Shown: positions 30,368-43,586 of the stretch, one piece after another
Layout of the letters: every line of letters starts with the position of its first letter
Position numbering within the stretch: the first letter of the stretch is position 1
Assembly (NCBI GenBank): GCA_965215195.1
Contig: CBDCDC010000002.1
Coordinates: 1,088,001 to 1,152,000 of the forward strand
Length of the DNA: 64,000 nt
Source: Candidatus Latescibacterota bacterium
GTDB lineage: Bacteria > Latescibacterota > UBA2968 > UBA8231
Direction of reading: 5' to 3'
Notes under the pieces: model-generated
What the model was told of the DNA's origin: nothing
The model's input: only the letters and a program-made list of their open reading frames with translations
Database searches by the model: none
Translations under genes and position numbers: made by a program

Positions 30368-31532
30368 CTAAGTACACGACAGTAAAATGGGTTCATATTG
30401 TTGGGCGTGTTTAGGCTGCTCACGCACTTGGTGTATGATGTGTGTGAGTTGATCGAGTCCTCGTCGAAACAGACTTATGGCGGGTCGTCCGTGTTTTTTT
30501 AGGGGGATAGGTTTTCTTTGATGGAGTTGCTCGCCCAGCAGCAGGCCCCACAGCAGCGTCCATGCCAGCAGTCCTAGCAGCAAATGGATGCGTTGAGGAT
30601 GGGTCAGGTGGGTATCTTCGAGATTAAATCCTCTCGATTTCAAACAAGCAAAGGTCGTCTCGATAGCCCAGCGCTGGCCATAGAGCGCCAGCACCTGTTG
30701 GAGGTCGGTTCGGTTGGTAATCAGCAGGATGCGTTCGCCGCGGGGGGGGCGGTGGCACACCAGATTCAGCGTCAGGCCATTATAGAGGGCCGTCTGTGGA
30801 TAGTATCGGGTGGTGTTTCGGGGCATCCGTTCATTAAAGGTGGCCGCATAGCGCAACCGACCATCGTCGAGCGTAAGCGAGGTATGGCCGCTCAGGCGAA
30901 TGACAAAATCGATGGGTTGCTCCAACAAAAAAGCAAACCAATCTCGACCGATAAACTCGCGGTCGGCGACTAAACAACAGGCGCTGGTATCCAGATAGGC
31001 CGCTACTTGGGTCAGCAGGTGTTTCCGTGCGTCGGTATGGGAGTTGCCCGGCTTTTGTAACGACTGATAGACCAACGGAATAGACTCTCCTTGATAGACC
31101 AAGCCGACACATAACAGATTCAGATCGGTGCGACCCCGCTTCCAATGGGTACGATCCATGACCAACACTTGCGGCTGACCGGGGCCCACTAACTTGGAGA
31201 CGATCAACTGAGTAAACACGGCGGGGGAGAATCCGCTACTGAAAAACCGCTGCAGACGGCGATATTGACTGTCTATTTGCGCCATGCCAGGCAAACTACA
31301 CGCCCGTTTTCTCAGATTGACCGAACGCACTTGCATCAGCGCACACATCAAGCCACTAAGCAGGTCCATGCGGTGGCGCGTGAGGGATACGGACCCTTGC
31401 ATGAGGGCTTGCTTTAGCGTATGAATAAGCACGGTACAGCTCCTGTATTTAGGATTTAGATGCAATCTTGGCGATTACAAATAAACCTAAATCGGGGCTG
31501 TACCACAACTTACATTACTGTCGTGTACTTAG
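30368..31532 (-). mobile_element. IS4-family element (transposase 30368-31465)
   Basis: 18-bp TIR CTAAGTACACGACAGTAA; 9-bp duplication CCCATTTGC; MDRTHW, ADREF and Y..RWAIE..F..LK (YREK). Confidence 0.93.
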
Positions 31533-32034: not shown

Positions 32035-33583
32035 TCAGGTAAACTGCAAGATCCCATACACCGACCTGTCGTAGAGATTCCTGCCACCGCCGCCAGACCA
32101 TACTATAGTGGATTTTATTCCTTCCTCGGGGGTGTCGCAGTCTTCGATCTCGATGTCGAAAAGGATCTCTTGGCCCTCATCCGGTTCTAGGTCTAGTTCC
32201 ACAAAGGGAAGTTTAGCGTACAGCCTGTACCCTCCTCTGCCCAACTCACACGTCACCTTTGACTCGGGGATGAATTCACAATCTCCAGTCTTCCTGTTTC
32301 GCTCCATGAATGCGGGATTAGGACCGCGCTCTGCGGTTGGGAACATAATGCAGACCTTGGGGTCTTCACGTACGTCGAATGAGGCAAAGTACACCCGCAC
32401 ACCGTCCCGTGACAGGTGGTCCCTCAACCTGTCGCCTTCCACGCATAGTACGACGTCGTCCTTTACTTCTATATCAAGGTGGAGATAATTTTCATCCCAA
32501 GCCACCCGGCAACAGGCACTTAGAGCCTATACGAAAATTGATTTTTTGTTGATACAAAGGTCTTGGCGACCTACGCTTTCCGTACCATTTGACCCTCAAC
32601 CAAGAGGAAGAAAGCCATGGCCACCAAGACCGATTCGCCGGACACGATCTGGCATACCCCGGATGCCTTGTGGAATCTAATCGCCCCGATTCTGGGTCCG
32701 GAAAAACAACCCGGCACCGTCGGACGTCCGCCCACACCCCACCGTGTCCTTTTTGACGCCATGATCTTTGTGTTGCGCAGCGGCTGCCAATGGCAGGCCA
32801 TTCCGCGGGCAGCCTATGCACCCGGCTCGACCGTCCACGGTCGGTTCCGCCAGTGGGTGAAACAAGGCGTGTTTCTCCGAGCTTGGCAGACGCTGCTACA
32901 CTACTATGATAAGCAAGTGGGCATTGCTTGGAAATGGCAAGCCCTCGATGGGGTGATCACCAAAGCGCCGTTGGGCGGCGAAGCGACCGGTCCGTCGCCG
33001 GTCGATCGGGGTAAAAAGGGCACTAAACGGTCGGTGTTGACCGACCAGCGAGGCGCACCGCTGGCCGTGGAAGTAACCGCAGCCAATACGCATGACAAAA
33101 CGGTAGCACTGGCGACGTTGGATGGCCTCGTCGTGGAAAGACCCAAGAAAGTCGTCTATCGGCTGCACCATCTGTGTCTGGACAAAGGCTATGACTACGC
33201 CGAGGTTATTGAAGGAGTCGAGGAACGCGACTATCACCTACACTTGGCGAAAAGTCAAGCCGACAAGGCCTCTATACCCGCGCAAAAGAAACATCCGGCT
33301 CGTCGATGGGTGGTTGAACGAACCCATGCTTGGCATAATCGATTCCGTCGTCTGTTGGTCCGATGGGAGAAAAAGAGTACCCATTACGAAGCATTCATTC
33401 AGGTCGCTTCGGTGCTTATCATTTTTCAAATCGTCGAACGGTTGACATGATTTCCGTATAGGCTCTAAGGTCGTTCTTGTCTTTCGGAGGGACTCCATTC
33501 TGAATATGCGTCCCAAAGGGTTGCCAGTCGGCTACATTACTCTCGGATATACGGATGAGACTATCCTCTTCTGTGCATGTCAT
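32035..33583 (-). pseudogene. CBM9/DOMON-like sugar-binding protein interrupted by an IS
   Basis: AWDENYLHLDIEVKDD...DGVRVYF...FDIEIED.D...YGILQF; the upstream part MTCTEE...PPKDKND lies beyond the IS. Confidence 0.65.
32523..33465 (+). mobile_element. IS5-family element, IS427-like (transposase 32617-33450)
   Basis: Ends GAGCCTATACGAAAAT / ATTTCCGTATAGGCTC with TA flanks; LRSGCQW, DKGYD and RWVVERTHAW. Confidence 0.9.
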
Positions 33584-33600: not shown

Positions 33601-34532
33601 AGAAGCGTTCTTAAAACTCATTTTGTGTTAGGCTTGTCTTGAAAGGACGTACCCATTGATTGACCTTTAGGTTTCCTCACAAAACCAGAAAGGTTGTCTA
33701 TTAATGAGTACGTCCCGTCGAGAATATGCGACCGATTTGACCGATGCACCATGGCAGGTGCTTCAGCGGTGGCTGCCGACGCGTCGTTGGCGTCGCGGCG
33801 GTCCGGGTCGGCCGCCTTGTGCTGTGCGCTTGGTGATCAATGGTATCCTCTACCGCGCTAAAACCGGGTGCCCATGGCCTGTGTTGCCTTCGTCGTTTGG
33901 CTGTTGGCAGACGGTGTATGGCTACTTTACTCCGTGGCGGCGTCAAGGGCATTGGAAACGGATCATGGACACGCTGACGAAGCAGGATCGCCTTGAGCAG
34001 GGGCGTGTTTCGACCCCGTCGGCGGGTCTTGTCGACGCACAGAGTGTCAAGACGGCAACCCAAGGGAAAACAGTTGGATACGACCCGGGAAAGAAAATCA
34101 AAGGCCGCAAACGCCACCTGTTGGTCGATACCCAAGGCCCTGTCCTCGAATGCGTGGTGACCGCCGCTTCAACCTCGGATGCCGACGGCTTGAAAAGGCT
34201 GTTGAGTCGCTATTTTGCGCCGAAGGTGCAACGGCTTAAGAAGCTGTGGGTGGACGGCGGCTATCGCGGGGAAGCGCTCAAAGCATGGGTCGCCGGTTTG
34301 AAAAAGACCCACAAAATCGACTGGGAGGTCGTGCAAAAACAAGAGTCCGGCTTTCAGGTATTGCCGCGTCGCTGGGTCGTCGAACGGACGTTTGCTTGGT
34401 TATCCAATTATCGAATCCATGCCAAAGACTACGAAGTCTTGCCTTGCAACAGTGAGGCGTTTATCCACATTACCATGATGCATCTGCTGCTCAAACGACT
34501 CGCTAACCGAAAGGGGTTTTGAGACAGCTTCT
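33601..34532 (+). mobile_element. IS5-family element, IS1031-like (transposase 33704-34522)
   Basis: Ends AGAAGCGTTCTTAAAAC / GTTTTGAGACAGCTTCT with TA flanks; YATDLTD, DAQSVKT, KKIKGRKRH and RWVVERTFAW. Confidence 0.9.
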
Positions 34533-34904: not shown

Positions 34905-35420
34905 CTAGTCCACGACGTCAAACTTCACTAAGCCTTCTTGTGTATCTCGAATAGTATCTATGGTGGTTTCTCCACACTCTACCCAAGCGTGTGGCCTCAA
35001 GCTCAACCCTTCAACACCAATAACCATCTTGGCAGAGAAGCCTCTCCTTTTTAACATCGAGCAGATTGCAAACGATCTCGGCAAACACAAAGCACGCCAT
35101 GGAAGGATCAAGCACGCTATTTGAACGGCATCTCTACACGATTGAAACACGTCGGTCTGATCAAAATCGGACTGGGGCACTCGAGATAGTCGGGTCACCT
35201 TGAGACTGTGACTATACATAGAGTCGAATTCCAACACACGACTCATGAGCCCTACGTACAACAGAGTCAGGAAAGCCTCTGCTGCTACCAAGTGCAACGG
35301 TAATTTCCTAAGATGCCGTCTTAAAACCTGTTGTGGCCTAGCTAAGCCTTGGAAGGAAATATTCATTAGGCAACCTTTGAATTTCACCAAACAGTCCGCT
35401 CCAGTTAGTGCATATTCCAC
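34905..35420 (-). CDS. Lasso peptide leader peptidase (B2, transglutaminase-like)
   Basis: CLPRS...LKRRG...VIGV...HAWVE with catalytic Cys and His. Confidence 0.92.
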   Translation of the reverse strand: MEYALTGADCLVKFKGCLMNISFQGLARPQQVLRRHLRKLPLHLVAAEAFLTLLYVGLMSRVLEFDSMYSHSLKVTRLSRVPQSDFDQTDVFQSCRDAVQIACLILPWRALCLPRSFAICSMLKRRGFSAKMVIGVEGLSLRPHAWVECGETTIDTIRDTQEGLVKFDVVD

Positions 35421-37262
35421 TTACTTCTCAACGACTTGGGCTCCAGCGTAACGGGCCGACTGGACATTGAAGAACTCAGCATAGATTCCACTCGCGCCAA
35501 TTAGATCTTCGTGTTTTCCTTGCTCAACTATTCTTCCGTTGTCTAGAACGATGATACGCGTAGCAACCTGCACAGTGCTCAGTCTGTGTGAAACTATGAG
35601 GCACGTTCGATCTTTCGTCACATCCTCCATCAGTCTTAGTAGTCTCTCCTCTGCCTCTACATCCATTGCTGCACTGGGCTCATCCATAACCAGCAAACCC
35701 GCTTGGCTCTTGAATAGAGCCCTAGCAAGGGCAATATGCTGCCACTGCCCTACAGACAAATCCACTCCGCCAATTTCCCGCCCTACTACTTGCTCATTCC
35801 CACCACTTAAATCTTTCGAGATTGCATCGACACCCGATTTGGCAAGTACTTTCTGCAAGAGCTCGGAATCTCCTTTTCGGTCTATATCACCAAGTTCAAC
35901 ATTTTCTCTAATTGTCCCGTCGTACCTAGCGAAGTCCTGAAACATGGCAGAGACAATTCCACGCCGCATTGCGGCATCGTCAAAAGTCTTCCCCTCTATA
36001 GATAACAGCACATCTCCTCGACTATGCGGCAACAAGCCACAGATAATTTTCACTAGAGTCGTCTTGCCAGCACCGTTTCTTCCGACCAAGGCTATCCGTT
36101 CACCTTTTTTTATTTCTAAATCAACCATCTGCAAGGCATCTTTATTTGTGCCAGGGTATCGATAGCACACATTCCTTAGTTGTAGGAGCGTATTTACTGA
36201 ACTCCCTCTGCTTGTTGTTGGAGTGAAAATAGGTTCCTTGTCCTCACTCAGTTCCATGAAATCGAAAAAATCACTAACAAAGAAGGAACTCCTGAACACT
36301 TGGACCACCGCATGGCCGAGCCCTCGTATTGCCTCTCTAAGCTGAACGGTTCCAGCAAGTCCAAGAGCAACTGAACTCAGATTTATCACGCCTTGAACGG
36401 CAAGCCAGACTACGTACATGTAAACAGCCGCTGCCGCTACCATGGCGGGTAAATCCCAGAACAGAACGCTCCTATTCTTGCTCAGAAATAGATGTCTCCG
36501 TCTATCATAGCATTCCTGCCAAAGAGACTCATACTTATCTAGCCAATGATCTTTATAGCCAAACACCCGTAGTTCCTTCGCGTAATCACGACTACTAAGC
36601 ACCTTTGAGTAGTAATTTAACTTACGACGGTCGGAGCTCTGATGTTTGAACAGATGATGTCCATCTACTATGTAGAGCATTTGACAAATCAGAAATGGCA
36701 CGGAAACCAGAATAAGTAGCGGGCTTATCCAAATACTAATTGTCGCGACTACAAGAGCCGTCGATATGACTCTAACTAACATTGAAATAGACGAAAAGAA
36801 AAGTATCGACGTATACTCAGGCCATTCCTGTGCACGTTGTGAGGCCTCTATCTTGTTGTAAAATCGTGGATCCTCATATTGATGATATGGGAGCCGACTC
36901 GCCTTCTCCGCTACTCGTTTTCTGGCAATATGCGTGGCTCGCTCCCCTAATATCCCTGTCATTGGTCTCCAGAGCACTTCTGCCATTGAAGCAACTCCCC
37001 ATATCAACACTTGTAGACATACTAAGGGGCCCACGCGTTCCAGATCCCATCCACTAGTTACGAGAGCCGCGGCCTCGTCAATTATCAGCTTCATCACCCA
37101 AAGAGACACCGCACCGGCTGCACCATCATAGACGATTAGTGCCAATGCTAACACCAAGTATGAGCTTCCTGCCTCTCGATACATCTTCAAAACGAGAGGA
37201 AGGCGCAAGACGAGGTTCTTTATACCGCTGTAAAATTCTAAGGTACGGACTTGCCAAGACAT
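35421..37262 (-). CDS. ABC transporter (fused permease-ATPase), probable lasso exporter
   Basis: AKELRVFG, GRNGAGKTT, LSVGQWQHIALARA, MDEP and SHRLST. Confidence 0.9.
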   Translation of the reverse strand: MSWQVRTLEFYSGIKNLVLRLPLVLKMYREAGSSYLVLALALIVYDGAAGAVSLWVMKLIIDEAAALVTSGWDLERVGPLVCLQVLIWGVASMAEVLWRPMTGILGERATHIARKRVAEKASRLPYHQYEDPRFYNKIEASQRAQEWPEYTSILFFSSISMLVRVISTALVVATISIWISPLLILVSVPFLICQMLYIVDGHHLFKHQSSDRRKLNYYSKVLSSRDYAKELRVFGYKDHWLDKYESLWQECYDRRRHLFLSKNRSVLFWDLPAMVAAAAVYMYVVWLAVQGVINLSSVALGLAGTVQLREAIRGLGHAVVQVFRSSFFVSDFFDFMELSEDKEPIFTPTTSRGSSVNTLLQLRNVCYRYPGTNKDALQMVDLEIKKGERIALVGRNGAGKTTLVKIICGLLPHSRGDVLLSIEGKTFDDAAMRRGIVSAMFQDFARYDGTIRENVELGDIDRKGDSELLQKVLAKSGVDAISKDLSGGNEQVVGREIGGVDLSVGQWQHIALARALFKSQAGLLVMDEPSAAMDVEAEERLLRLMEDVTKDRTCLIVSHRLSTVQVATRIIVLDNGRIVEQGKHEDLIGASGIYAEFFNVQSARYAGAQVVEK

Positions 37263-37418
37263 AGGTAAAAAGTCCTTCTTAGCTCGATTGCATCCCCCAA
37301 GGTATTTTTATGAGGCAGTATTGTTTCAGCGAGGCGGTCTGAGGCGGTCTGGACTTTCTAGATCACCACGGTTTAGAGTTGTACCGCTACCTCACGCGAA
37401 AGGCACGTTGAGAATAGC

Positions 37419-37556
37419 CTAGGCCTCCTTAAAGAATTCGTCCTTTCCGCCAACCGTCTCACTCCCGGCCGATGTTCCGCCCTTGGTGAGTTCGTCAACT
37501 TTTCCATACTCGATCACTCGAGGTTTTTCGTACTTTAGGGTTTCGTTAGTTTTCAT
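37419..37556 (-). CDS. Lasso peptide precursor (45 aa)
   Basis: Hand translation MKTNETLKYEKPRVIEYGKVDELTK-GGTSAGSETVGGKDEFFKEA*. Leader has YxxP-x-V, G and Thr at -2; core has Gly1 and Glu8. Confidence 0.93.
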   Translation of the reverse strand: MKTNETLKYEKPRVIEYGKVDELTKGGTSAGSETVGGKDEFFKEA

Positions 37557-37642
37557 AAGCTATATCTGCTTTCTGTGGCTTACTCTAACGAAAGGATCCA
37601 GATTCGCCTCAGACCTCCTGTAACTGCAACTGATTGTCCTCA

Positions 37643-39460
37643 TCAAAATGAAAATAAGTCCGTATTATCCGATAACCATTTGTCCATGCTTAAATAGCAC
37701 AGGGCCGTTCGACACGATTTTTCGCACCCGTAAAATGCACGCTCCAGACCGGCTCTATAAATCTGCCGGTCAGCGATACCTAGCCTTACAAGTATTGAGT
37801 TCATCCAAAGATGTTCTACTCTGATCCACTCCTTGCGAAAAGCAAGGGACAAGGACTCAAAATTGCCACCTTTGCTTCTCCTGTTTAGAACCCGTTCCGG
37901 AAGAACATCTCGTAGAGCTAGCCTTTGTAACCCGCGCGTATCTAGTCCGTTTACTCGCATACCTGGCGGCAGAGATAAACAGCGTCTCACTAGAAAACTA
38001 TCGAAGAATGGATGCCGGGATACCACCCCGAGGTCGCTTGTTTCACCTGTGAAGTTACGTATCTCTCTAAACAAGGCATCTGCAATAATCGCTGACTCAA
38101 GATATGGCATTTCTGAAACCATCGACCACTGTGTGCGAAGCAAGCGTCTGGCATGTTGATCATCCTGCATATCAGTAAGCCAATTTACAGAACTAAGTGT
38201 CAGCATGCCCGGACGAAATGGCTTTATTAGATACTTCCAGACTCCCCGAATCAAGGGTTCATTTTTGCGCTCACACCACATCCTTAAGTGCGATGCTGTT
38301 TGCTTCACGTGGCCATTTCGTATTAAGTCACGCAGGCCCCATGGTCGAGCACAGAACAATTGGTCCCCTCCTAATCCGGTCAACAGAAGATCAACACCGT
38401 TATCTTGGCATATTGATCGGACCTTCTCGGTTGCTGCTTCCTGAAGAGTGCTGATGCTTGGTTCTGGTAGACGAAGAGATTCGTCCAGTGGTTCCTTTAA
38501 ATGCCATGCGTCACCTACATCAATTTCAAAGCACTCAACCCCTACTTTCCTCACTATTTCCCTAGCATAATCCAATTCATTGCAACCTACGACATCATTT
38601 CGATAAGTCGTCAATGCACATAAGCCATGTCTTCCACTTCCTTTGCTTTGCAAGGCTGCAAGCGCAAGAATTGCCGATGAGTCTAGCCCCCCACTCAACG
38701 AAACACATGGTCGCTCCGCTACAACGGTTCGGATTCTAACAGCTCGACCTAAGTCTGAGAGCATTTTCCTTGATAGATCTTTGGGATTAGTCGGCAATAT
38801 ACAGTCTGCTTCTTTCCATACGCTAATTGTCTTTGTCCTCACTGACCGGGACACCACTTCAAGGGCTGTGCCAGGTACTAAGGCTTTTATCCCTTCAAAT
38901 GGAGTAAGTTGATACGAACTTGGTGCTTGTTTCGGGAGCACTGTGCTCAAGTAGGCAAGGACGTACGTATAGTTTAGATTCAATTCTATTCCTGGAAGAA
39001 ACGTCATTGCACATATATCTGTGGAAATGAATAGATAGCCATTTAATTCTGTATAGTAGATCGGGCGGACACCGCGGAAATCTATACTAACCCATACACG
39101 TTCATCACGAGGAGCCACAACCATCAGACAAAACTCACCGACAAGGGTGCTAAATACTAGCTCTGGACACCAACTACGAGGCACGTGAATCTCGTCCGCT
39201 GAAACTTGGCTGCACTCCTTTTCCGATTCGGCAACTCTGAACGCAGGATCAGAAAGAACAACAAACGGCTCCGTTCTTGCTGGAGTCTTTGTCGATTTCG
39301 ACACCGAATATGCTAACCACGCGTCGTTTCCCAATCCACTTGGCACAATAGCAACATCACCACCTTGACTTCTCACCCATCCCTGTGCTGAATCCGAAAT
39401 ACGATTCGCAGACAGAGAAATACATATACAAAGCGTATTGCTAGTTCTAGGCCTTCTCAT
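37643..39460 (-). CDS. Lasso cyclase (asparagine synthetase-like, C protein)
   Basis: SLSGGLDSS, LTGLGGDQLF, RHPFFD and RRSKG. Confidence 0.92.
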   Translation of the reverse strand: MRRPRTSNTLCICISLSANRISDSAQGWVRSQGGDVAIVPSGLGNDAWLAYSVSKSTKTPARTEPFVVLSDPAFRVAESEKECSQVSADEIHVPRSWCPELVFSTLVGEFCLMVVAPRDERVWVSIDFRGVRPIYYTELNGYLFISTDICAMTFLPGIELNLNYTYVLAYLSTVLPKQAPSSYQLTPFEGIKALVPGTALEVVSRSVRTKTISVWKEADCILPTNPKDLSRKMLSDLGRAVRIRTVVAERPCVSLSGGLDSSAILALAALQSKGSGRHGLCALTTYRNDVVGCNELDYAREIVRKVGVECFEIDVGDAWHLKEPLDESLRLPEPSISTLQEAATEKVRSICQDNGVDLLLTGLGGDQLFCARPWGLRDLIRNGHVKQTASHLRMWCERKNEPLIRGVWKYLIKPFRPGMLTLSSVNWLTDMQDDQHARRLLRTQWSMVSEMPYLESAIIADALFREIRNFTGETSDLGVVSRHPFFDSFLVRRCLSLPPGMRVNGLDTRGLQRLALRDVLPERVLNRRSKGGNFESLSLAFRKEWIRVEHLWMNSILVRLGIADRQIYRAGLERAFYGCEKSCRTALCYLSMDKWLSDNTDLFSF

Positions 39461-39713
39461 TGACTATTAATCCTAAATTAACGAGTTCTTGCAAAAACTC
39501 CTGTGCATCCTGTCTTACCAGAGACCGTGGTTGCTCATAGATATCGGCCACTTGGTCGAGTGCATCCCACCTCTTGTTTTTTGCTACAATGTTCTTCCAA
39601 ATCTTTGCTGCTACTCCTTCTAGGCCAAAGTATTTTCCGGAATTGCAATCCAGAATGACCAAACCCTCTTCATTTTCTGCTACGTAGACGCCCTCAGCTA
39701 TCCTATAGCTCAT
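39447..39713 (-). CDS. PqqD-family RiPP recognition element (B1)
   Basis: 88 aa: LVILD..SGKYFGL.GVAAKIW...D...FLQEL...GLI. Confidence 0.92.
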   Translation of the reverse strand: MSYRIAEGVYVAENEEGLVILDCNSGKYFGLEGVAAKIWKNIVAKNKRWDALDQVADIYEQPRSLVRQDAQEFLQELVNLGLIVNEKA

Positions 39714-39715
39714 GA

Positions 39716-40771
39716 CTAGTTCCCACCTTTCTTAGAGAGTTCTCTAGCTGGTTTAGGCCTAAAGTACTTTAACCAACCGCGTTCAAACATAGCTTTGCAT
39801 ACCACCAATTTCAAAGCAGATGGAACCTCCCCTGGAAGATTCTTAATTAAAGTAGGAGTCTTACTTCGCACCATGTGCTCAACAAGTCTAATTGAGTCCC
39901 TTGGCAGACGAAGGAGAGTATTAGCTGATGTAACTAAGCCCTCTCCTTTCACGACTAACTGTTCACCACAGTTATCGTCAAATGATAATCTTATACCACT
40001 CTCTATTACTATGCAGCCCTCCAATGACATAAAAGAGGCCGTTTCAATATCGAGATCAAATCTATTCTTCGGGCAATTATGCCATGTTGTCCGACCTTTA
40101 GCAATAAGCCTTATCGCTTCGATCATTTTATTAACCGACTCAATATCATTTCTAACAAGATCCATCAATTTGTCACAAATACAAACGTTCTCCTCGCCGA
40201 TCGAAGACGCAAGAATCGCCAAGGGAGTAGATAAGATTGATGCTCCTTCACGATGAGATAATCTCATCTGTCTTACCAAGACTTCTAACGTCAGTGCCTT
40301 GAATCCTACAGTTAAATGTACGGATGGTTCTCTTCCCGCTCTGGCTTGATGCTTAGCACCTTTGGGAATATATAATGCGTCTCCCACTCCAAGCTCCTTT
40401 TCAATCACTGCTGAAATATGAGCATCTATAGGCTCGACTACCCAGTTTTTTGATCCCTCGCACTGAATTGCAAACACATCATAATTATCTTTATGGGCAT
40501 GTAAAGTTTGTTTTCCGTTGGGGGTCATATAACAATTAATGTTTGCATTCCCCAGAAGATGATTTTCAAGTGAACTTCGCATCACAGACAATACTGGAAC
40601 CAAGCGATCCAATCCTCGAATGACTACGGACTTTCCTCTTTGAAATGCATCTAGAGCTGCCCTAGCGTTGCAATTCGCATCAACTTCTAGTCGTCTTTCA
40701 CTAAGAACCTCTACATGGTTGTTGGGATCTGAACCTATGGCCCAGATCAACTTTGTAATCTCCTCATACAT
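39716..40771 (-). CDS. JmjC/Cupin_4 (YcfD/NO66-like) Fe(II)/2OG oxygenase
   Basis: NCYMTP...HAHKDNYDVFAIQCEGSKNW...GDALYIPKGAKHQA...SVHLTVG. Start placed at MYEE. Confidence 0.88.
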   Translation of the reverse strand: MYEEITKLIWAIGSDPNNHVEVLSERRLEVDANCNARAALDAFQRGKSVVIRGLDRLVPVLSVMRSSLENHLLGNANINCYMTPNGKQTLHAHKDNYDVFAIQCEGSKNWVVEPIDAHISAVIEKELGVGDALYIPKGAKHQARAGREPSVHLTVGFKALTLEVLVRQMRLSHREGASILSTPLAILASSIGEENVCICDKLMDLVRNDIESVNKMIEAIRLIAKGRTTWHNCPKNRFDLDIETASFMSLEGCIVIESGIRLSFDDNCGEQLVVKGEGLVTSANTLLRLPRDSIRLVEHMVRSKTPTLIKNLPGEVPSALKLVVCKAMFERGWLKYFRPKPARELSKKGGN

Positions 40772-40799
40772 GAACTTTAACGCGTCTGGCCCTTGCTGG

Positions 40800-42143
40800 T
40801 CAGGAAACCATCCGCATCGGCATGAGCACGGCAGCGTGGTGGTCCGCCCCCGCCTCAAAGTGAAGGGGTGCCTTACCATGGTCGAGATATATCCGTATCT
40901 CCTCCGCCGCGTCTTTCAGAGCCTCCACAATCGCTTTGAGGAAGTCGTGATTGAGGCCGGCGCGGAACGATCCGCCATCCTCGATATTTGTCACATCGGC
41001 AGGGCAACTCACGGAGTACTCCCAGTCCGGTAGCTCGTCGCCGAGCAGGTCGTCCGCGTCTTCTCGGGTCCGACTGAACCCTTGATCCCGCGTCGTGCGC
41101 AGTGCCAGTTTCCCCTCTGCGCTCGACACTCGCATCTCTACGCTAGGCACGTACTCCCAGCCACTTTTCACCAGTTCGTGGCGGTCTCTGAGGAACGGCT
41201 CGATCTCCTCCACGCAGGCCATCAGGTGCTCGCTGTGCACGACCACCAAGATCGGACCGGGGGTGCCGACGGCCTCTTGGTACTTGAGGTACGGTCCGGG
41301 AATTGCAGGGAACGTCACCCTGCGGCCGTCCGAGGTCTGCAACGTGGCAGATTCCTCTTCGAGAATCAGCATTGCCGAGTCCGTCTCCGGGATCATTTCA
41401 GGGTGCAGCGAATCGAGAATCACCGGGACCGGCAGCGACGCCAGACCCTTACTCAACCAGTTGAGCAGCCGCGAGCCATCGGTTGCGACAATCCTGCCGC
41501 CGGCGTCGAGACAGACGCAGTGCATAATGGGCCGCTTGGGATCGTCGCTTGTGAAGCGAGCTACGCGGCGCAGTCCGGCCAGATCGTCCAGGCCGAGTTC
41601 GAATGTCTGGGAAGTGCTGGATTCCGCCATCGCCACGATCTCCTTTTGCAGGCGTTTCCGGGCCTTTTGCAGACGGCTCTTTACCACTCCGGTTTGGAGG
41701 TGCAGCAAGTTTGCGGTCTGCTGATATGAATAGCCCTTGAGGTAGTGGTGGACGATCACGTCGCGGTGGGGGTCACTCAACCGTCCTATCGCCTTCCGCA
41801 CGAGTGCCCTGATCTCTTGCTTCTCCTGCTCGGGCGGTGCCGCGAGGTCGAGCTGATCCAGAAGATTGAGTTGCGTGAGGCGGTGCCGCTGCCACATGCG
41901 CGCTTTGTTGTCCGCAATCGAACACAGCCAAGCACCGAACCGCTCGGGAGAGCGCAGCCTTGCTAGCTGCTGGTACGCGGCCATGAACGCCTCCTGCAGG
42001 ATGTCCTCTGCCGCCTCTTGCGAGCCCAGCCTGCGGGTGAGTCGCGCCAGTAGCCACGGCGAATGTTCCTCAACGAGCAGACCAAACGCCGTAGCGTCGC
42101 CAGCGGCCGCCTTCTGCACACAATTTTCCCCATTCCGTTCCAT
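40800..42143 (-). CDS. ECF sigma factor fused to DnaN (beta-clamp) domain II-III-like region
   Basis: Sigma2/4 motifs AEDILQEAF, FGAWL and VKSRLQKARKRL; clamp motifs SDDPKRPIM.CV, VATDGSRL, GPYLKY, GLNHDFL and terminal VLMPMRM. Confidence 0.82.
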   Translation of the reverse strand: MERNGENCVQKAAAGDATAFGLLVEEHSPWLLARLTRRLGSQEAAEDILQEAFMAAYQQLARLRSPERFGAWLCSIADNKARMWQRHRLTQLNLLDQLDLAAPPEQEKQEIRALVRKAIGRLSDPHRDVIVHHYLKGYSYQQTANLLHLQTGVVKSRLQKARKRLQKEIVAMAESSTSQTFELGLDDLAGLRRVARFTSDDPKRPIMHCVCLDAGGRIVATDGSRLLNWLSKGLASLPVPVILDSLHPEMIPETDSAMLILEEESATLQTSDGRRVTFPAIPGPYLKYQEAVGTPGPILVVVHSEHLMACVEEIEPFLRDRHELVKSGWEYVPSVEMRVSSAEGKLALRTTRDQGFSRTREDADDLLGDELPDWEYSVSCPADVTNIEDGGSFRAGLNHDFLKAIVEALKDAAEEIRIYLDHGKAPLHFEAGADHHAAVLMPMRMVS

Positions 42144-42207
42144 GTCACCCTTATACTTATAGTTGCTTCGAGGCGACAAAGGTATCCCCAGCGGGACAAA
42201 ATTCATC

Positions 42208-43494
42208 CTACTCCCGCACGAACTGCGGCCGGCCGCAGCCGTCGTTGACCACGTAGCTGCGCGCTGGAATCGCCGCTTGGTCGGGAATGACTAAATCGAG
42301 CGGCGAATCATTCTCAATGACCGTGCCAGCCCCCACGCGCACCCCGGCCCCCAATTTAATCGCTCCAGGCCGCACGGCCCCCGCCCTAATGGTGCCGATA
42401 GATACTGACACGCCGATCCGGCAATCCGGGCCAATCGCGACGATGCCGTTGATTTCGGTGTTGGCCCCAATCGCCGTGCGGTCGCCCACCTGCACCGGGC
42501 CGAAAAGCCCGGCATCCGTGCCGATAAACACGTAGTCGCCAATGGCCGGATGGCGTTGCTGCACTTTGCCGCTGAGGCCGCCCAAAGTACACGGATAAAT
42601 GTGGCATCCGCTGCCGATGATACCCGTCTGTCCGGTGGTTATGCCGCGATGGGGATGGTCGAGGAAGTTGGCGTCGCCAATTTGCGTTTCGGGATGGATA
42701 TCCGCCTGATAGTAGCGGCCCCCCAACTCGGCAATGGCCCGCGGCAGCAAGGGCACTGGCCGCCGCATCAGCCCGGATTCCTCCTCCACCGAGCCGGAGC
42801 GCGTTAGGGCGTGGGCAATGTCGTGATAGAACAGCACCCGCCACCCCGGATAGGTGCTCATCACAAGCTGCATCTGGTAGTCGAAAATGAAGTCGCACTC
42901 CAGCGCGGCGAGGAAGCGGCGATAGTGGTCAAAGTCGCGGCGGCGAATGGTCTCGTCCAAAGCGGCCCGGAAGTCAATCGCGAGCAGTTGCTCCTGAGTC
43001 AGCCCACAATTGTCGAGCAAATAGGCGTCCCAAACGGCCGGATCCCTAAGCGCGGCAAAGCGATTCCAGCGGGCGCGCACCTTGTAAGCGGGCAACTCCC
43101 ACAGCAAACAGAAGGTGTTCATCAGGGCCTTCTCTTCAGTGCCTTCGCGCTCGCCGGCTGCCGAAAGCGACTGGGCGATCATCGCGTAGAGCTGATCGGC
43201 AATCTCGCCAATGGCCTCGTCGAGCGACTGCTTTTGCTGCCCCGGCCCCAAGGCATTGTGCGATCCAGGGGCGACGCATTCGAGCAAGTTGCCCAAAACC
43301 GTTTCCAGCAGGTCGCGATTGACAAACCCGCGCCCCGAGCGCTCCGAGAGAATGTCCCGGTCAACCGCGTCGATGCGGAGCGCGGCGACCTCCTCTGCGG
43401 TGTAGATCGGCACCAGCCGCTCTAACAGCCGCTCTAGCAACGCCCACTTGCGGCGTTGATACGAAGTGTCGAAAAGCGTGGAATTGCTCATCAT
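42208..43494 (-). CDS. Divergent serine-acetyltransferase-like hexapeptide-repeat protein
   Basis: YPG..V..YH.IAH.L, DIHPETQIG..NFLDH and TLGG....RHPAIG, plus a long N-terminal extension. Confidence 0.7.
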   Translation of the reverse strand: MMSNSTLFDTSYQRRKWALLERLLERLVPIYTAEEVAALRIDAVDRDILSERSGRGFVNRDLLETVLGNLLECVAPGSHNALGPGQQKQSLDEAIGEIADQLYAMIAQSLSAAGEREGTEEKALMNTFCLLWELPAYKVRARWNRFAALRDPAVWDAYLLDNCGLTQEQLLAIDFRAALDETIRRRDFDHYRRFLAALECDFIFDYQMQLVMSTYPGWRVLFYHDIAHALTRSGSVEEESGLMRRPVPLLPRAIAELGGRYYQADIHPETQIGDANFLDHPHRGITTGQTGIIGSGCHIYPCTLGGLSGKVQQRHPAIGDYVFIGTDAGLFGPVQVGDRTAIGANTEINGIVAIGPDCRIGVSVSIGTIRAGAVRPGAIKLGAGVRVGAGTVIENDSPLDLVIPDQAAIPARSYVVNDGCGRPQFVRE

Positions 43495-43586
43495 TTGCTC
43501 CCCATTTTGCCTCCGCATAACTTTTAAGGAAACTTACGGAACGCCCGCCGGGTTGCAACCCGGCTTCACTCTTGCGGGGAAAAACC

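Follow-up and report, generated by a model that had tools for sequence, protein, structure and literature searches.

An ECF sigma factor of Latescibacterota fused to DnaN domains II and III and carrying a clamp-binding-type motif in its linker

The ECF41 sigma factors, of which Mycobacterium tuberculosis SigJ is an example, are extracytoplasmic function (ECF) regulators that operate without a separate anti-sigma factor; an extension fused to their C terminus contacts a conserved motif in the sigma2-sigma4 linker and prevents binding to core RNA polymerase (PMC8999054, PMC7826278). The ECF extensions described in these two sources include SnoaL-like, TPR, Cys-rich, DUF1835 and transmembrane types. 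A connection between a sigma factor and a sliding clamp is described for late transcription in phage T4, which involves gp33 and the gp45 clamp and in which the sigma-family protein gp55 has a clamp-binding motif and binding to the pocket of the gp45 clamp controls transcription; this trans-acting and activating system (PMC7892883) is the closest clamp-sigma link that we found in print. Here we describe a gene in a 64,000-nucleotide stretch of Candidatus Latescibacterota DNA (contig CBDCDC010000002.1, positions 1,088,001 to 1,152,000; hereafter the window) whose product is an ECF sigma factor fused to a half clamp equivalent to domains II and III of the bacterial sliding clamp DnaN, and whose linker bears a motif of the kind found in clamp ligands.

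The gene lies on the minus strand (Table 1), where its open reading frame (ORF) offers an alternative table 11 start at 42206 that would yield 468 amino acids (aa). Among 40 homologs, the majority are 447 aa long with the N-terminus MERNGE, and their start matches the Met codon at 42143. Because of these 447-aa homologs and of a conserved stretch resembling a ribosome-binding site (RBS) before this ATG, the likely gene is 42143..40800, the extent given in an original prediction made by reading the window. That prediction had singled out the strings RPIM.CV, ATDGSRL, GPYLKY, N.DFL and a terminal VLMPMRM, as well as TQLNLLDQLDL in the linker, and each is found in the translation, where the first, fourth and fifth read RPIMHCV, NHDFL and VLMPMRMVS. 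Its assignment of the N-terminal part to the ECF sigma factors also holds: the models that it recommended for a scan, Sigma70_r2 and Sigma70_r4_2, both score above their cut-offs (on the 468-aa reading they span residues 44-107 and 135-186, respectively), NCBIfam TIGR02937 (sigma70-ECF) reaches 90 bits with its cut-off at 42.9, and a comparison of the whole protein with solved structures retrieves ECF sigma factors at E 4e-14. With regions 2 and 4 above curated cut-offs and neither region 3 nor region 1.1, the protein has the makeup of an ECF (group IV) sigma-70 factor.

A scan with the DNA_pol3_beta_2 and _3 models had been suggested in the same way for the C-terminal region, but here Pfam is silent: no DNA_pol3_beta family matches the fusion protein even at E ≤ 1, and the protein lies below all Pfam DnaN thresholds. 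A single-sequence phmmer search of solved structures likewise returned sigma factors only and no clamp. Neither of these searches saw this part of the protein, and profile searches were needed. When the C-terminal 273 aa were compared by phmmer with the representatives of a library of 1.8 billion proteins, 77 proteins were recovered at E ≤ 1e-3, among them three genuine three-domain DnaNs (E 1.3e-4 to 5.6e-4) that aligned across their domains II-III. The phage family phrog_947 of PHROGs, “DNA polymerase processivity factor”, matches at E 1.6e-11. Two family profiles, A3 and A4, match solved beta clamps at E 1.9e-17 and 1.6e-19, with all 55 sequences matched by A4 being clamps, and the profile matches fall in two stretches, at about residues 124-270 and 313-374 of the clamp. 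An AlphaFold2 (AF2) model built from a 56-row alignment (mean predicted local distance difference test score, pLDDT, 88.7; predicted template modeling score 0.72) gives exclusively bacterial clamps as its top Foldseek matches, at E of about 1e-13. VIA-align superimposes residues 175-446 of the model on residues 121-366 of the Escherichia coli clamp with Z scores of 19-22 and a root-mean-square deviation of 2.3-3.0 Å over about 233 residues. Thus, the C-terminal portion of about 272 residues corresponds to DnaN domains II and III, a homology that is robust and that agrees with the predicted DnaN-like C terminus of about two domains. The absence of a clamp fold had been named as grounds for rejecting that prediction, and the predicted fold matches clamps only.

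The clamp fold begins near residue 176, only a few residues beyond the end of sigma region 4 near residue 172. Because the two abut, there is no domain I, just as the original prediction had seen no room for one, and of the three DnaN domains, II and III alone are matched. The limits used for the E. coli clamp domains are those we assume, and we placed the boundary between domains II and III at the equivalent of P242. The module has in common with DnaN the fold of domains II and III, the residues of the pocket and a ligand motif of the canonical form; it differs in lacking domain I, and hence a DnaN-type dimeric ring, in its fusion to a sigma factor, and in a family-specific insert in the domain III-like part (conserved RHP, W374 and G355). 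The extension differs from that of ECF41 in matching beta clamps only, with no SnoaL match in Pfam. At 272 aa it is longer than the 50 aa expected of a regulatory C-terminal extension, it is present in all full-length homologs, and a scan of the neighboring genes, which covers recognized anti-sigma families, found none of them. PADLOC assigned no defense-system family to the whole protein or to its C-terminal part.

The module also occurs with other partners, in each case on a short or unknown contig. One protein (P0074) carries an N-terminal zinc-ribbon-like segment (weak Pfam match, E 0.003), and another (P0117) a C-terminal SEC-C motif. Where sigma region 4 meets the clamp module, M172 (about 41628-41630) is invariant in a 25-row alignment, and gene calls on short contigs that appear as “stand-alone” half clamps start there; an internal start at this Met would yield a free half clamp.

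The 18 residues of subsites I and II that form the peptide pocket of the E. coli clamp are listed in a 2024 review (PMC11139829), and we mapped them by aligning E. coli DnaN with 56 family rows. Many are kept in most rows (Table 1); the equivalents of L155, V247, V360, Y323 and M364 are hydrophobic across the family, and those of H175, R246 and V344 are variable, V344 being variable also among the clamps covered in that review. In the protein from the window, 14 of the 18 positions are identical or conservatively replaced, the differing ones being H175>S, R246>E, V344>K and P242>L. The domain II pocket residues R204, T221, G223, S224, R225, L226 and L286 correspond to E. coli R152, T172, G174, H175, R176, L177 and P242, and the domain III-like part contributes N398, F401, V439, M441, P442, M443 and R444. 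Three of these (N398, M441 and P442) fall among only eight nearly invariant columns in the whole-family alignment (A3). Judging from these alignments, the half-clamp module has retained the clamp peptide-binding pocket, as had been claimed.

The candidate ligand lies within the same polypeptide. Clamp-binding motifs are defined as Qφx[L/M][F/L] or Qφx[L/M]x[F/L] (PMC11139829), and the pentapeptide QLNLL, which follows closely on region 2.4 where the sigma2-sigma4 linker begins, fits the first form and is one residue off the QLNLF of Pol V given in the same review. We surveyed the motif in 46 fusion rows with 22-96% identity to the protein from the window. Its Gln is present in 44 of the 46 and persists down to about 25% identity. 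A hydrophobic residue occupies position 4 in 44 rows, and these two features extend to rows with only 22-35% identity. Leu is found at position 2 in 31 rows, position 8 is mainly hydrophobic, and a relaxed Q-x-x-hydrophobic form can be read in 45 rows. The motif is absent from all four of the nearest ECF sigma factors that lack the clamp module. Conservation of the linker motif among fusion homologs, which had been proposed as a check, is borne out for the Gln, and this well outside the close clade. The linker and pocket also covary: a hydrophobic residue or Leu at motif position 5 pairs with Ala at the V247-equivalent pocket residue in 21 of 24 rows, and a polar one with V, I, L or F in 22 of 22. 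One close homolog (P0005) has a scrambled linker.

Conservation of both partners also bears on whether the module serves mainly for oligomerization, or is a structural relic, with the half clamp forming a PCNA-like trimer or pairing with a DnaN monomer and no ligand acting as a switch. Two-domain protomers form the trimeric ring of T4 gp45 (PMC7892883), and the conserved family-specific features (RHP, W374 and G355) lie outside the pocket. Nonetheless, selective conservation of pocket and linker motif would be unexpected for a mere scaffold, and we regard this reading as improbable.

For complex prediction, the clamp-like domain (residues 176-447) and the linker (residues 80-115) were supplied as separate chains, each with its own alignment. 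The runs gave ipSAE interface scores of 0.71, 0.73 and 0.58, compared with 0.00 for all three controls, and had at least 75% of contacts in common; in a calibration of the score, 58 of 80 solved complexes and 2 of 110 mismatched pairs attained the mark. In the predicted pose, Q91 contacts residues 398, 441, 443 and 224, the equivalents of N320, M362, M364 and H175 in subsite II, while L94 and L95 contact residues 221, 223, 226, 291 and 439, the equivalents of T172, G174, L177, V247 and V360 in subsite I. The interface also takes in a family-specific loop (355-359). Residues Q91-L95 are accordingly placed by the model in what is predicted to be the canonical clamp pocket, with Gln occupying subsite II and the two Leu residues subsite I, as in DnaN.

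The reading that we favor, with a probability of roughly 55%, is that the sigma factor inhibits itself in cis, as ECF41 does, by means of a clamp pocket and its partner motif put to a new use. The protein would be a one-component ECF sigma factor with a half clamp that forms no ring as its regulatory extension. The pocket would grip the start of the sigma factor's own sigma2-sigma4 linker, and a linker so held would prevent the sigma factor from binding core RNA polymerase. In ECF holoenzymes, the sigma2-sigma4 connector runs through RNA polymerase along the route that it follows in primary sigma factors (PMC6372665). Because the connector must thread through the polymerase in this way, its capture should prevent holoenzyme formation. 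Release might occur when another molecule occupies or reshapes the pocket, possible candidates being small-molecule ligands of clamp pockets and proteins or peptides with a clamp-binding motif. The freed sigma factor could then turn on its regulon, which in close relatives may include adjoining efflux pumps. The arrangement would resemble that of ECF41, in which a C-terminal domain on a linker motif likewise blocks the core enzyme, the difference being a DnaN domain II and III fold and a clamp-binding-type linker motif where ECF41 has a SnoaL-like extension.

The position of the motif also bears on a reading modeled on T4 gp55, according to which the linker motif would bind the DNA-loaded DnaN ring and couple the sigma factor to replicating DNA, with the half clamp serving as a competitor or buffer. 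Phage Mu reportedly uses the beta clamp for late transcription. T4 gp55 itself has a sliding-clamp-binding motif and is activated through gp45 (PMC7892883), and the near identity of QLNLL to the Pol V motif (PMC11139829) would suit a ligand of the replicative clamp. However, the gp55 motif is on a flexible C-terminal tail, whereas the motif here is at the start of the connector between regions 2 and 4. As the connector runs through RNA polymerase (PMC6372665), the motif should be buried in the active sigma factor, and we consider a gp55-like role decidedly improbable. Activation in T4 comes in trans from a full ring loaded on DNA, by way of C-terminal tails; the clamp described here is incomplete and part of the sigma factor chain, and the location of the motif in an internal linker argues for autoinhibition rather than tethering.

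Several observations weigh against cis autoinhibition. The original prediction expected QLNLL to dock in the pocket, and this is only partly upheld: the two-chain prediction gives the canonical pose, but the full-length AF2 model has a mean pLDDT of 62 for residues 91-100 and 59 for residues 101-110, with the motif modeled as helical, in the final part of a long helix spanning 66-99. In the complex itself, the pLDDT of the linker partner is 51-53, and the complex score may reflect the predictor's memory, as many clamp-peptide complexes have been solved. The motif is strictly canonical in only 19 of the 46 fusions (18 pentameric and one hexameric), and most of these belong to a single clade. 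In distant members the sequence is Q-L-R-[LW]-[EQ]-x-φ-φ, with E, Q or D at position 5, a form that we presume to be comparable to helical variants resembling the PIP box. The covariation between motif position 5 and the V247 equivalent is probably a single evolutionary event on the tree. In principle, a two-domain protomer could form a trimer like that of PCNA, which is a trimeric ring of two-domain protomers. Nor has a regulon come into view: the 16-mer of the conserved 5' region occurs once in the window, with at least one match also in 41 of 100 shuffles, and scans of the window for sigma-70 promoters and terminators revealed no enrichment and defined no ECF promoter or regulon motif. The conserved gene neighborhood is confined to the close clade, and none of the close-clade neighbor genes is matched at seven loci of 54-66% identity. 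Moreover, every sequence comes from metagenome-assembled genomes. Finally, conservation of the pocket fits a ligand that binds in trans equally well.

This last point bears on the possibility that the half clamp is an adaptor acting in trans, which would bind resident proteins with clamp-binding motifs (polymerases, Hda or mismatch-repair proteins) and so tie the sigma factor to replication or repair, the linker motif being minor or unrelated. Pocket residues are indeed conserved at about the level of true DnaNs, and a comparison with the cell's own clamp points in the same direction. The genome also holds a normal three-domain dnaN, followed by recF, whose product is only distantly related to the fused module (18 of 42 positions identical in the best BLASTP segment). 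In 7 of 11 genomes, representing 10 genera, the gate residue (the position of E. coli H175) in the half clamp is the same as in the DnaN of the same genome; the residue in resident clamps is S or T, A, or H, depending on the family, and the match holds for all three “A” genomes and both “H” genomes. This agreement amounts to at most three independent events. Because the gate residue of the half clamp tracks that of the resident DnaN, the comparison is suggestive, but no more than suggestive, of two pockets that may see the same ligands. An adaptor role nevertheless leaves unexplained why the linker Gln and hydrophobic position 4 occur in 44 of 46 fusions and in none of the four ECF sigma factors without the module, and the linker itself is predicted to dock in the pocket. 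We therefore judge the adaptor to be unlikely as the main function, though it is compatible with cis autoinhibition, for which trans ligands could be the competitors.

Exactly one match to the fusion is found in 67 of 168 genomes of the phylum, all inside 4 of 14 families and alongside a normal dnaN, and this single-copy, confined distribution indicates a vertically inherited gene rather than cargo of the adjoining island described below. All but three of the 67 matches are in open frames of 422-510 aa; the three exceptions are truncated, and in two truncated copies (L022 and L025, in genomes G131 and G108) the match ends in the first 60-80 positions of the clamp module. Close homologs come from genomes labeled Latescibacterota or Gemmatimonadota, with one distant member in Candidatus Handelsmanbacteria, where annotation goes no further than hypothetical protein or sigma factor.

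Stand-alone half clamps beside a separate sigma gene, which would serve as a naturally split control, were looked for, and none could be confirmed. The candidates, about 280 aa in length, are encoded on contigs of 968-1388 nucleotides (nt), and one (P0053) falls into the same 90% cluster as a protein of 466 aa. A metagenome scan for such genes gave four loci, none of them confirmed: two are fusions (L057 and L058), one is a 2.2-kb fragment (L055) and one is a broken copy (L056). At L056 (2990-4095), an ORF with sigma region 2 and the linker is followed by a separate ORF with the last 225 aa of the clamp module, and a second ECF-like gene downstream also looks frameshifted.

About 70 nt before the start codon (42144-42215) are conserved in 21 related sequences, and this region may hold the promoter. 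The window and one other locus (L013) lack about 10 nt that the remaining loci have between TGTCCC and GGATAC, and a TGTACA...TGTACA palindrome is found further upstream in several of the loci L001-L028. In the close clade, the gene lies between a gene similar to serine acetyltransferases and an enoyl-CoA hydratase gene, with variable cassettes on both sides. The upstream neighbor in the window (42208-43518, minus strand) encodes 436 aa whose C-terminal half is a serine-acetyltransferase-like hexapeptide domain; its long N-terminal part has no match in Pfam or NCBIfam. This neighbor is syntenic and 91-94% identical in 19 of 21 close-clade loci, and the interval between it and the sigma gene is a cassette hot spot occupied by MpaB-MMPL-LolA-like-DUF1302 genes, an MFS pump or a sulfotransferase. 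By contrast, ten neighbors from two of the seven loci at 54-66% identity (L018 and L020) belong to unrelated Pfam families or to none.

Many of these cassettes encode exporters, such that one of MFS, MMPL or ABC type adjoins the gene in 16 of 22 close-clade loci, the window included (Table 1). This count overstates independence among close kin, though three pump types occur. Efflux neighbors and the tracking of the resident pocket might speculatively favor a clamp-targeting small molecule or peptide as the releasing ligand. A further extension, to which the exporters and the gate-residue agreement are both congenial, would make the half clamp an integrated decoy: attackers of the DnaN pocket, such as griselimycin-like antibiotics, clamp-binding peptides, or clamp-targeting toxins or phage proteins, would displace the linker and thereby elicit a protective regulon such as efflux. 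We regard this extension as doubtful. In griselimycin and mycoplanecin producers, extra complete DnaN paralogs are said to replace the drug target as a means of self-resistance. The likeness is that in both cases a further protein derived from the clamp has a pocket that natural products aimed at the clamp could encounter; the difference is that those paralogs are complete, whereas here a two-domain module sits on a transcription factor.

In the window, a complete lasso-peptide cluster lies directly downstream of the sigma gene and is transcribed in the same direction. Between the cyclase and exporter genes, a candidate precursor has Thr at -2 ahead of a Gly-Gly core start, Glu at core position 8, and a core of about 20 residues ending in DEFFKEA; an 8-residue ring is possible, and both the cleavage site and the ring are assigned by rules that we take to apply. 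This arrangement invites the idea that the fusion is a dedicated regulator or immunity sensor of the cluster, with the lasso peptide as pocket ligand. We find this very improbable. The genes for the lasso cyclase, B1, B2 and precursor are found in none of 32 related loci at E ≤ 1e-5, yet the fusion is single-copy in the genomes noted above, and the predicted core peptide lacks a Qφx[L/M][F/L] motif. The G+C content of the cluster is 0.46-0.50, compared with 0.62 in its flanks, and the cluster is followed by insertion sequence (IS) transposases, for which reasons it looks like a recent, strain-specific insertion. The cluster was ruled out as a functional partner on account of its absence from the related loci.

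Table 1. Features of the fusion gene, its product and its surroundings. Positions refer to the window; pocket residues are numbered as in the E. coli clamp, with their conservation in 56 family rows.
Feature	Position or occurrence	Strand	Basis or remark
Whole gene, ECF sigma factor with DnaN domain II+III module, 447 aa plus stop	40800..42143	-	ORF, homolog starts, RBS-like upstream sequence
Sigma region 2, residues 23-86	41886..42077	-	Pfam Sigma70_r2, 53.3 bits, cut-off 24
Sigma2-sigma4 linker, residues 87-113, opening with conserved R-R-R stretch	41805..41885	-	family alignments
QLNLL, residues 91-95, clamp-binding-motif-like pentapeptide	41859..41873	-	fits Qφx[L/M][F/L]
Sigma region 4, residues 114-165	41649..41804	-	Pfam Sigma70_r4_2, 41.7 bits, cut-off 25.7
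Clamp domain II-like part, residues 175-288	41280..41621	-	profile matches on clamp 124-270, VIA alignment, pocket mapping
Clamp domain III-like part, residues 289-447	40803..41279	-	profile matches on clamp 313-374, VIA alignment, pocket mapping
R152 equivalent	47/56 rows		kept
T172 equivalent	46/56 rows		kept
G174 equivalent	50/56 rows		kept
R176 equivalent	43/56 rows		kept
L177 equivalent	43/56 rows		kept
N320 equivalent	51/56 rows		kept
M362 equivalent	52/56 rows		kept
P363 equivalent	55/56 rows		kept
R365 equivalent	37/56 rows		kept
Conserved 5' region with RBS-like AAGGGTGA	42144..42200	-	conservation in 21 related sequences
GGATACCTTTGTCGCC, 16-mer in conserved 5' region	42172-42187	-	single occurrence in window
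MpaB-like oxygenase and MMPL transporter, mostly plus LolA-like and/or DUF1302-like genes, upstream	8 loci		
DHA2-type MFS pump, upstream	5 loci		
MFS pump, downstream	1 locus		
Mixed cassette	1 locus (L012)		
ABC exporter, downstream	2 loci		beside already counted MMPL cassette
ABC exporter of lasso cluster	1 locus (window)		
Complete lasso-peptide cluster	34905-40879	-	directly downstream of sigma gene
JmjC-type hydroxylase	40879..39716	-	annotated start overlaps sigma gene; true start probably further downstream
PqqD/B1	39713..39447	-	
Asn-synthetase-like cyclase C	39460..37643	-	
Candidate 45-aa lasso precursor	37419-37556	-	between cyclase and exporter; no Pfam match
ABC exporter	37262..35421	-	
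B2 protease	35420..34905	-	
IS4/IS5-type DDE transposase ORF	33704..34522	+	after lasso cluster
IS4/IS5-type DDE transposase ORF	32617..33450	+	after lasso cluster
IS4/IS5-type DDE transposase ORF	30368..31465	-	after lasso cluster

The original prediction held that no regulator of this kind had been described, and we likewise found none. A full-text literature search turned up no description of a clamp-type ECF extension. The word “clamp” does not occur in the main text of either PMC7826278 or PMC8999054, although Supplementary Table S2 of the former could list such a group without naming the fold. What is new here is an ECF sigma factor of the regulatory-extension type with a new module and a new recognition pair.

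If cis autoinhibition is correct, the peptide pocket of a replication hub, together with the short linear motif that it recognizes, would have found a second use in switching a transcription factor from within the molecule. The half clamp would then be a new sensor module among extension-bearing ECF sigma factors, and the fusion would be the second case, phage T4 being the first, in which nature connects a sliding clamp with a sigma factor. Because the pocket is a validated antibiotic target, such a protein would also provide a portable, genetically encoded reporter for clamp-pocket ligands. For the uncultured Latescibacterota and related lineages, it would offer a way into their stress responses.

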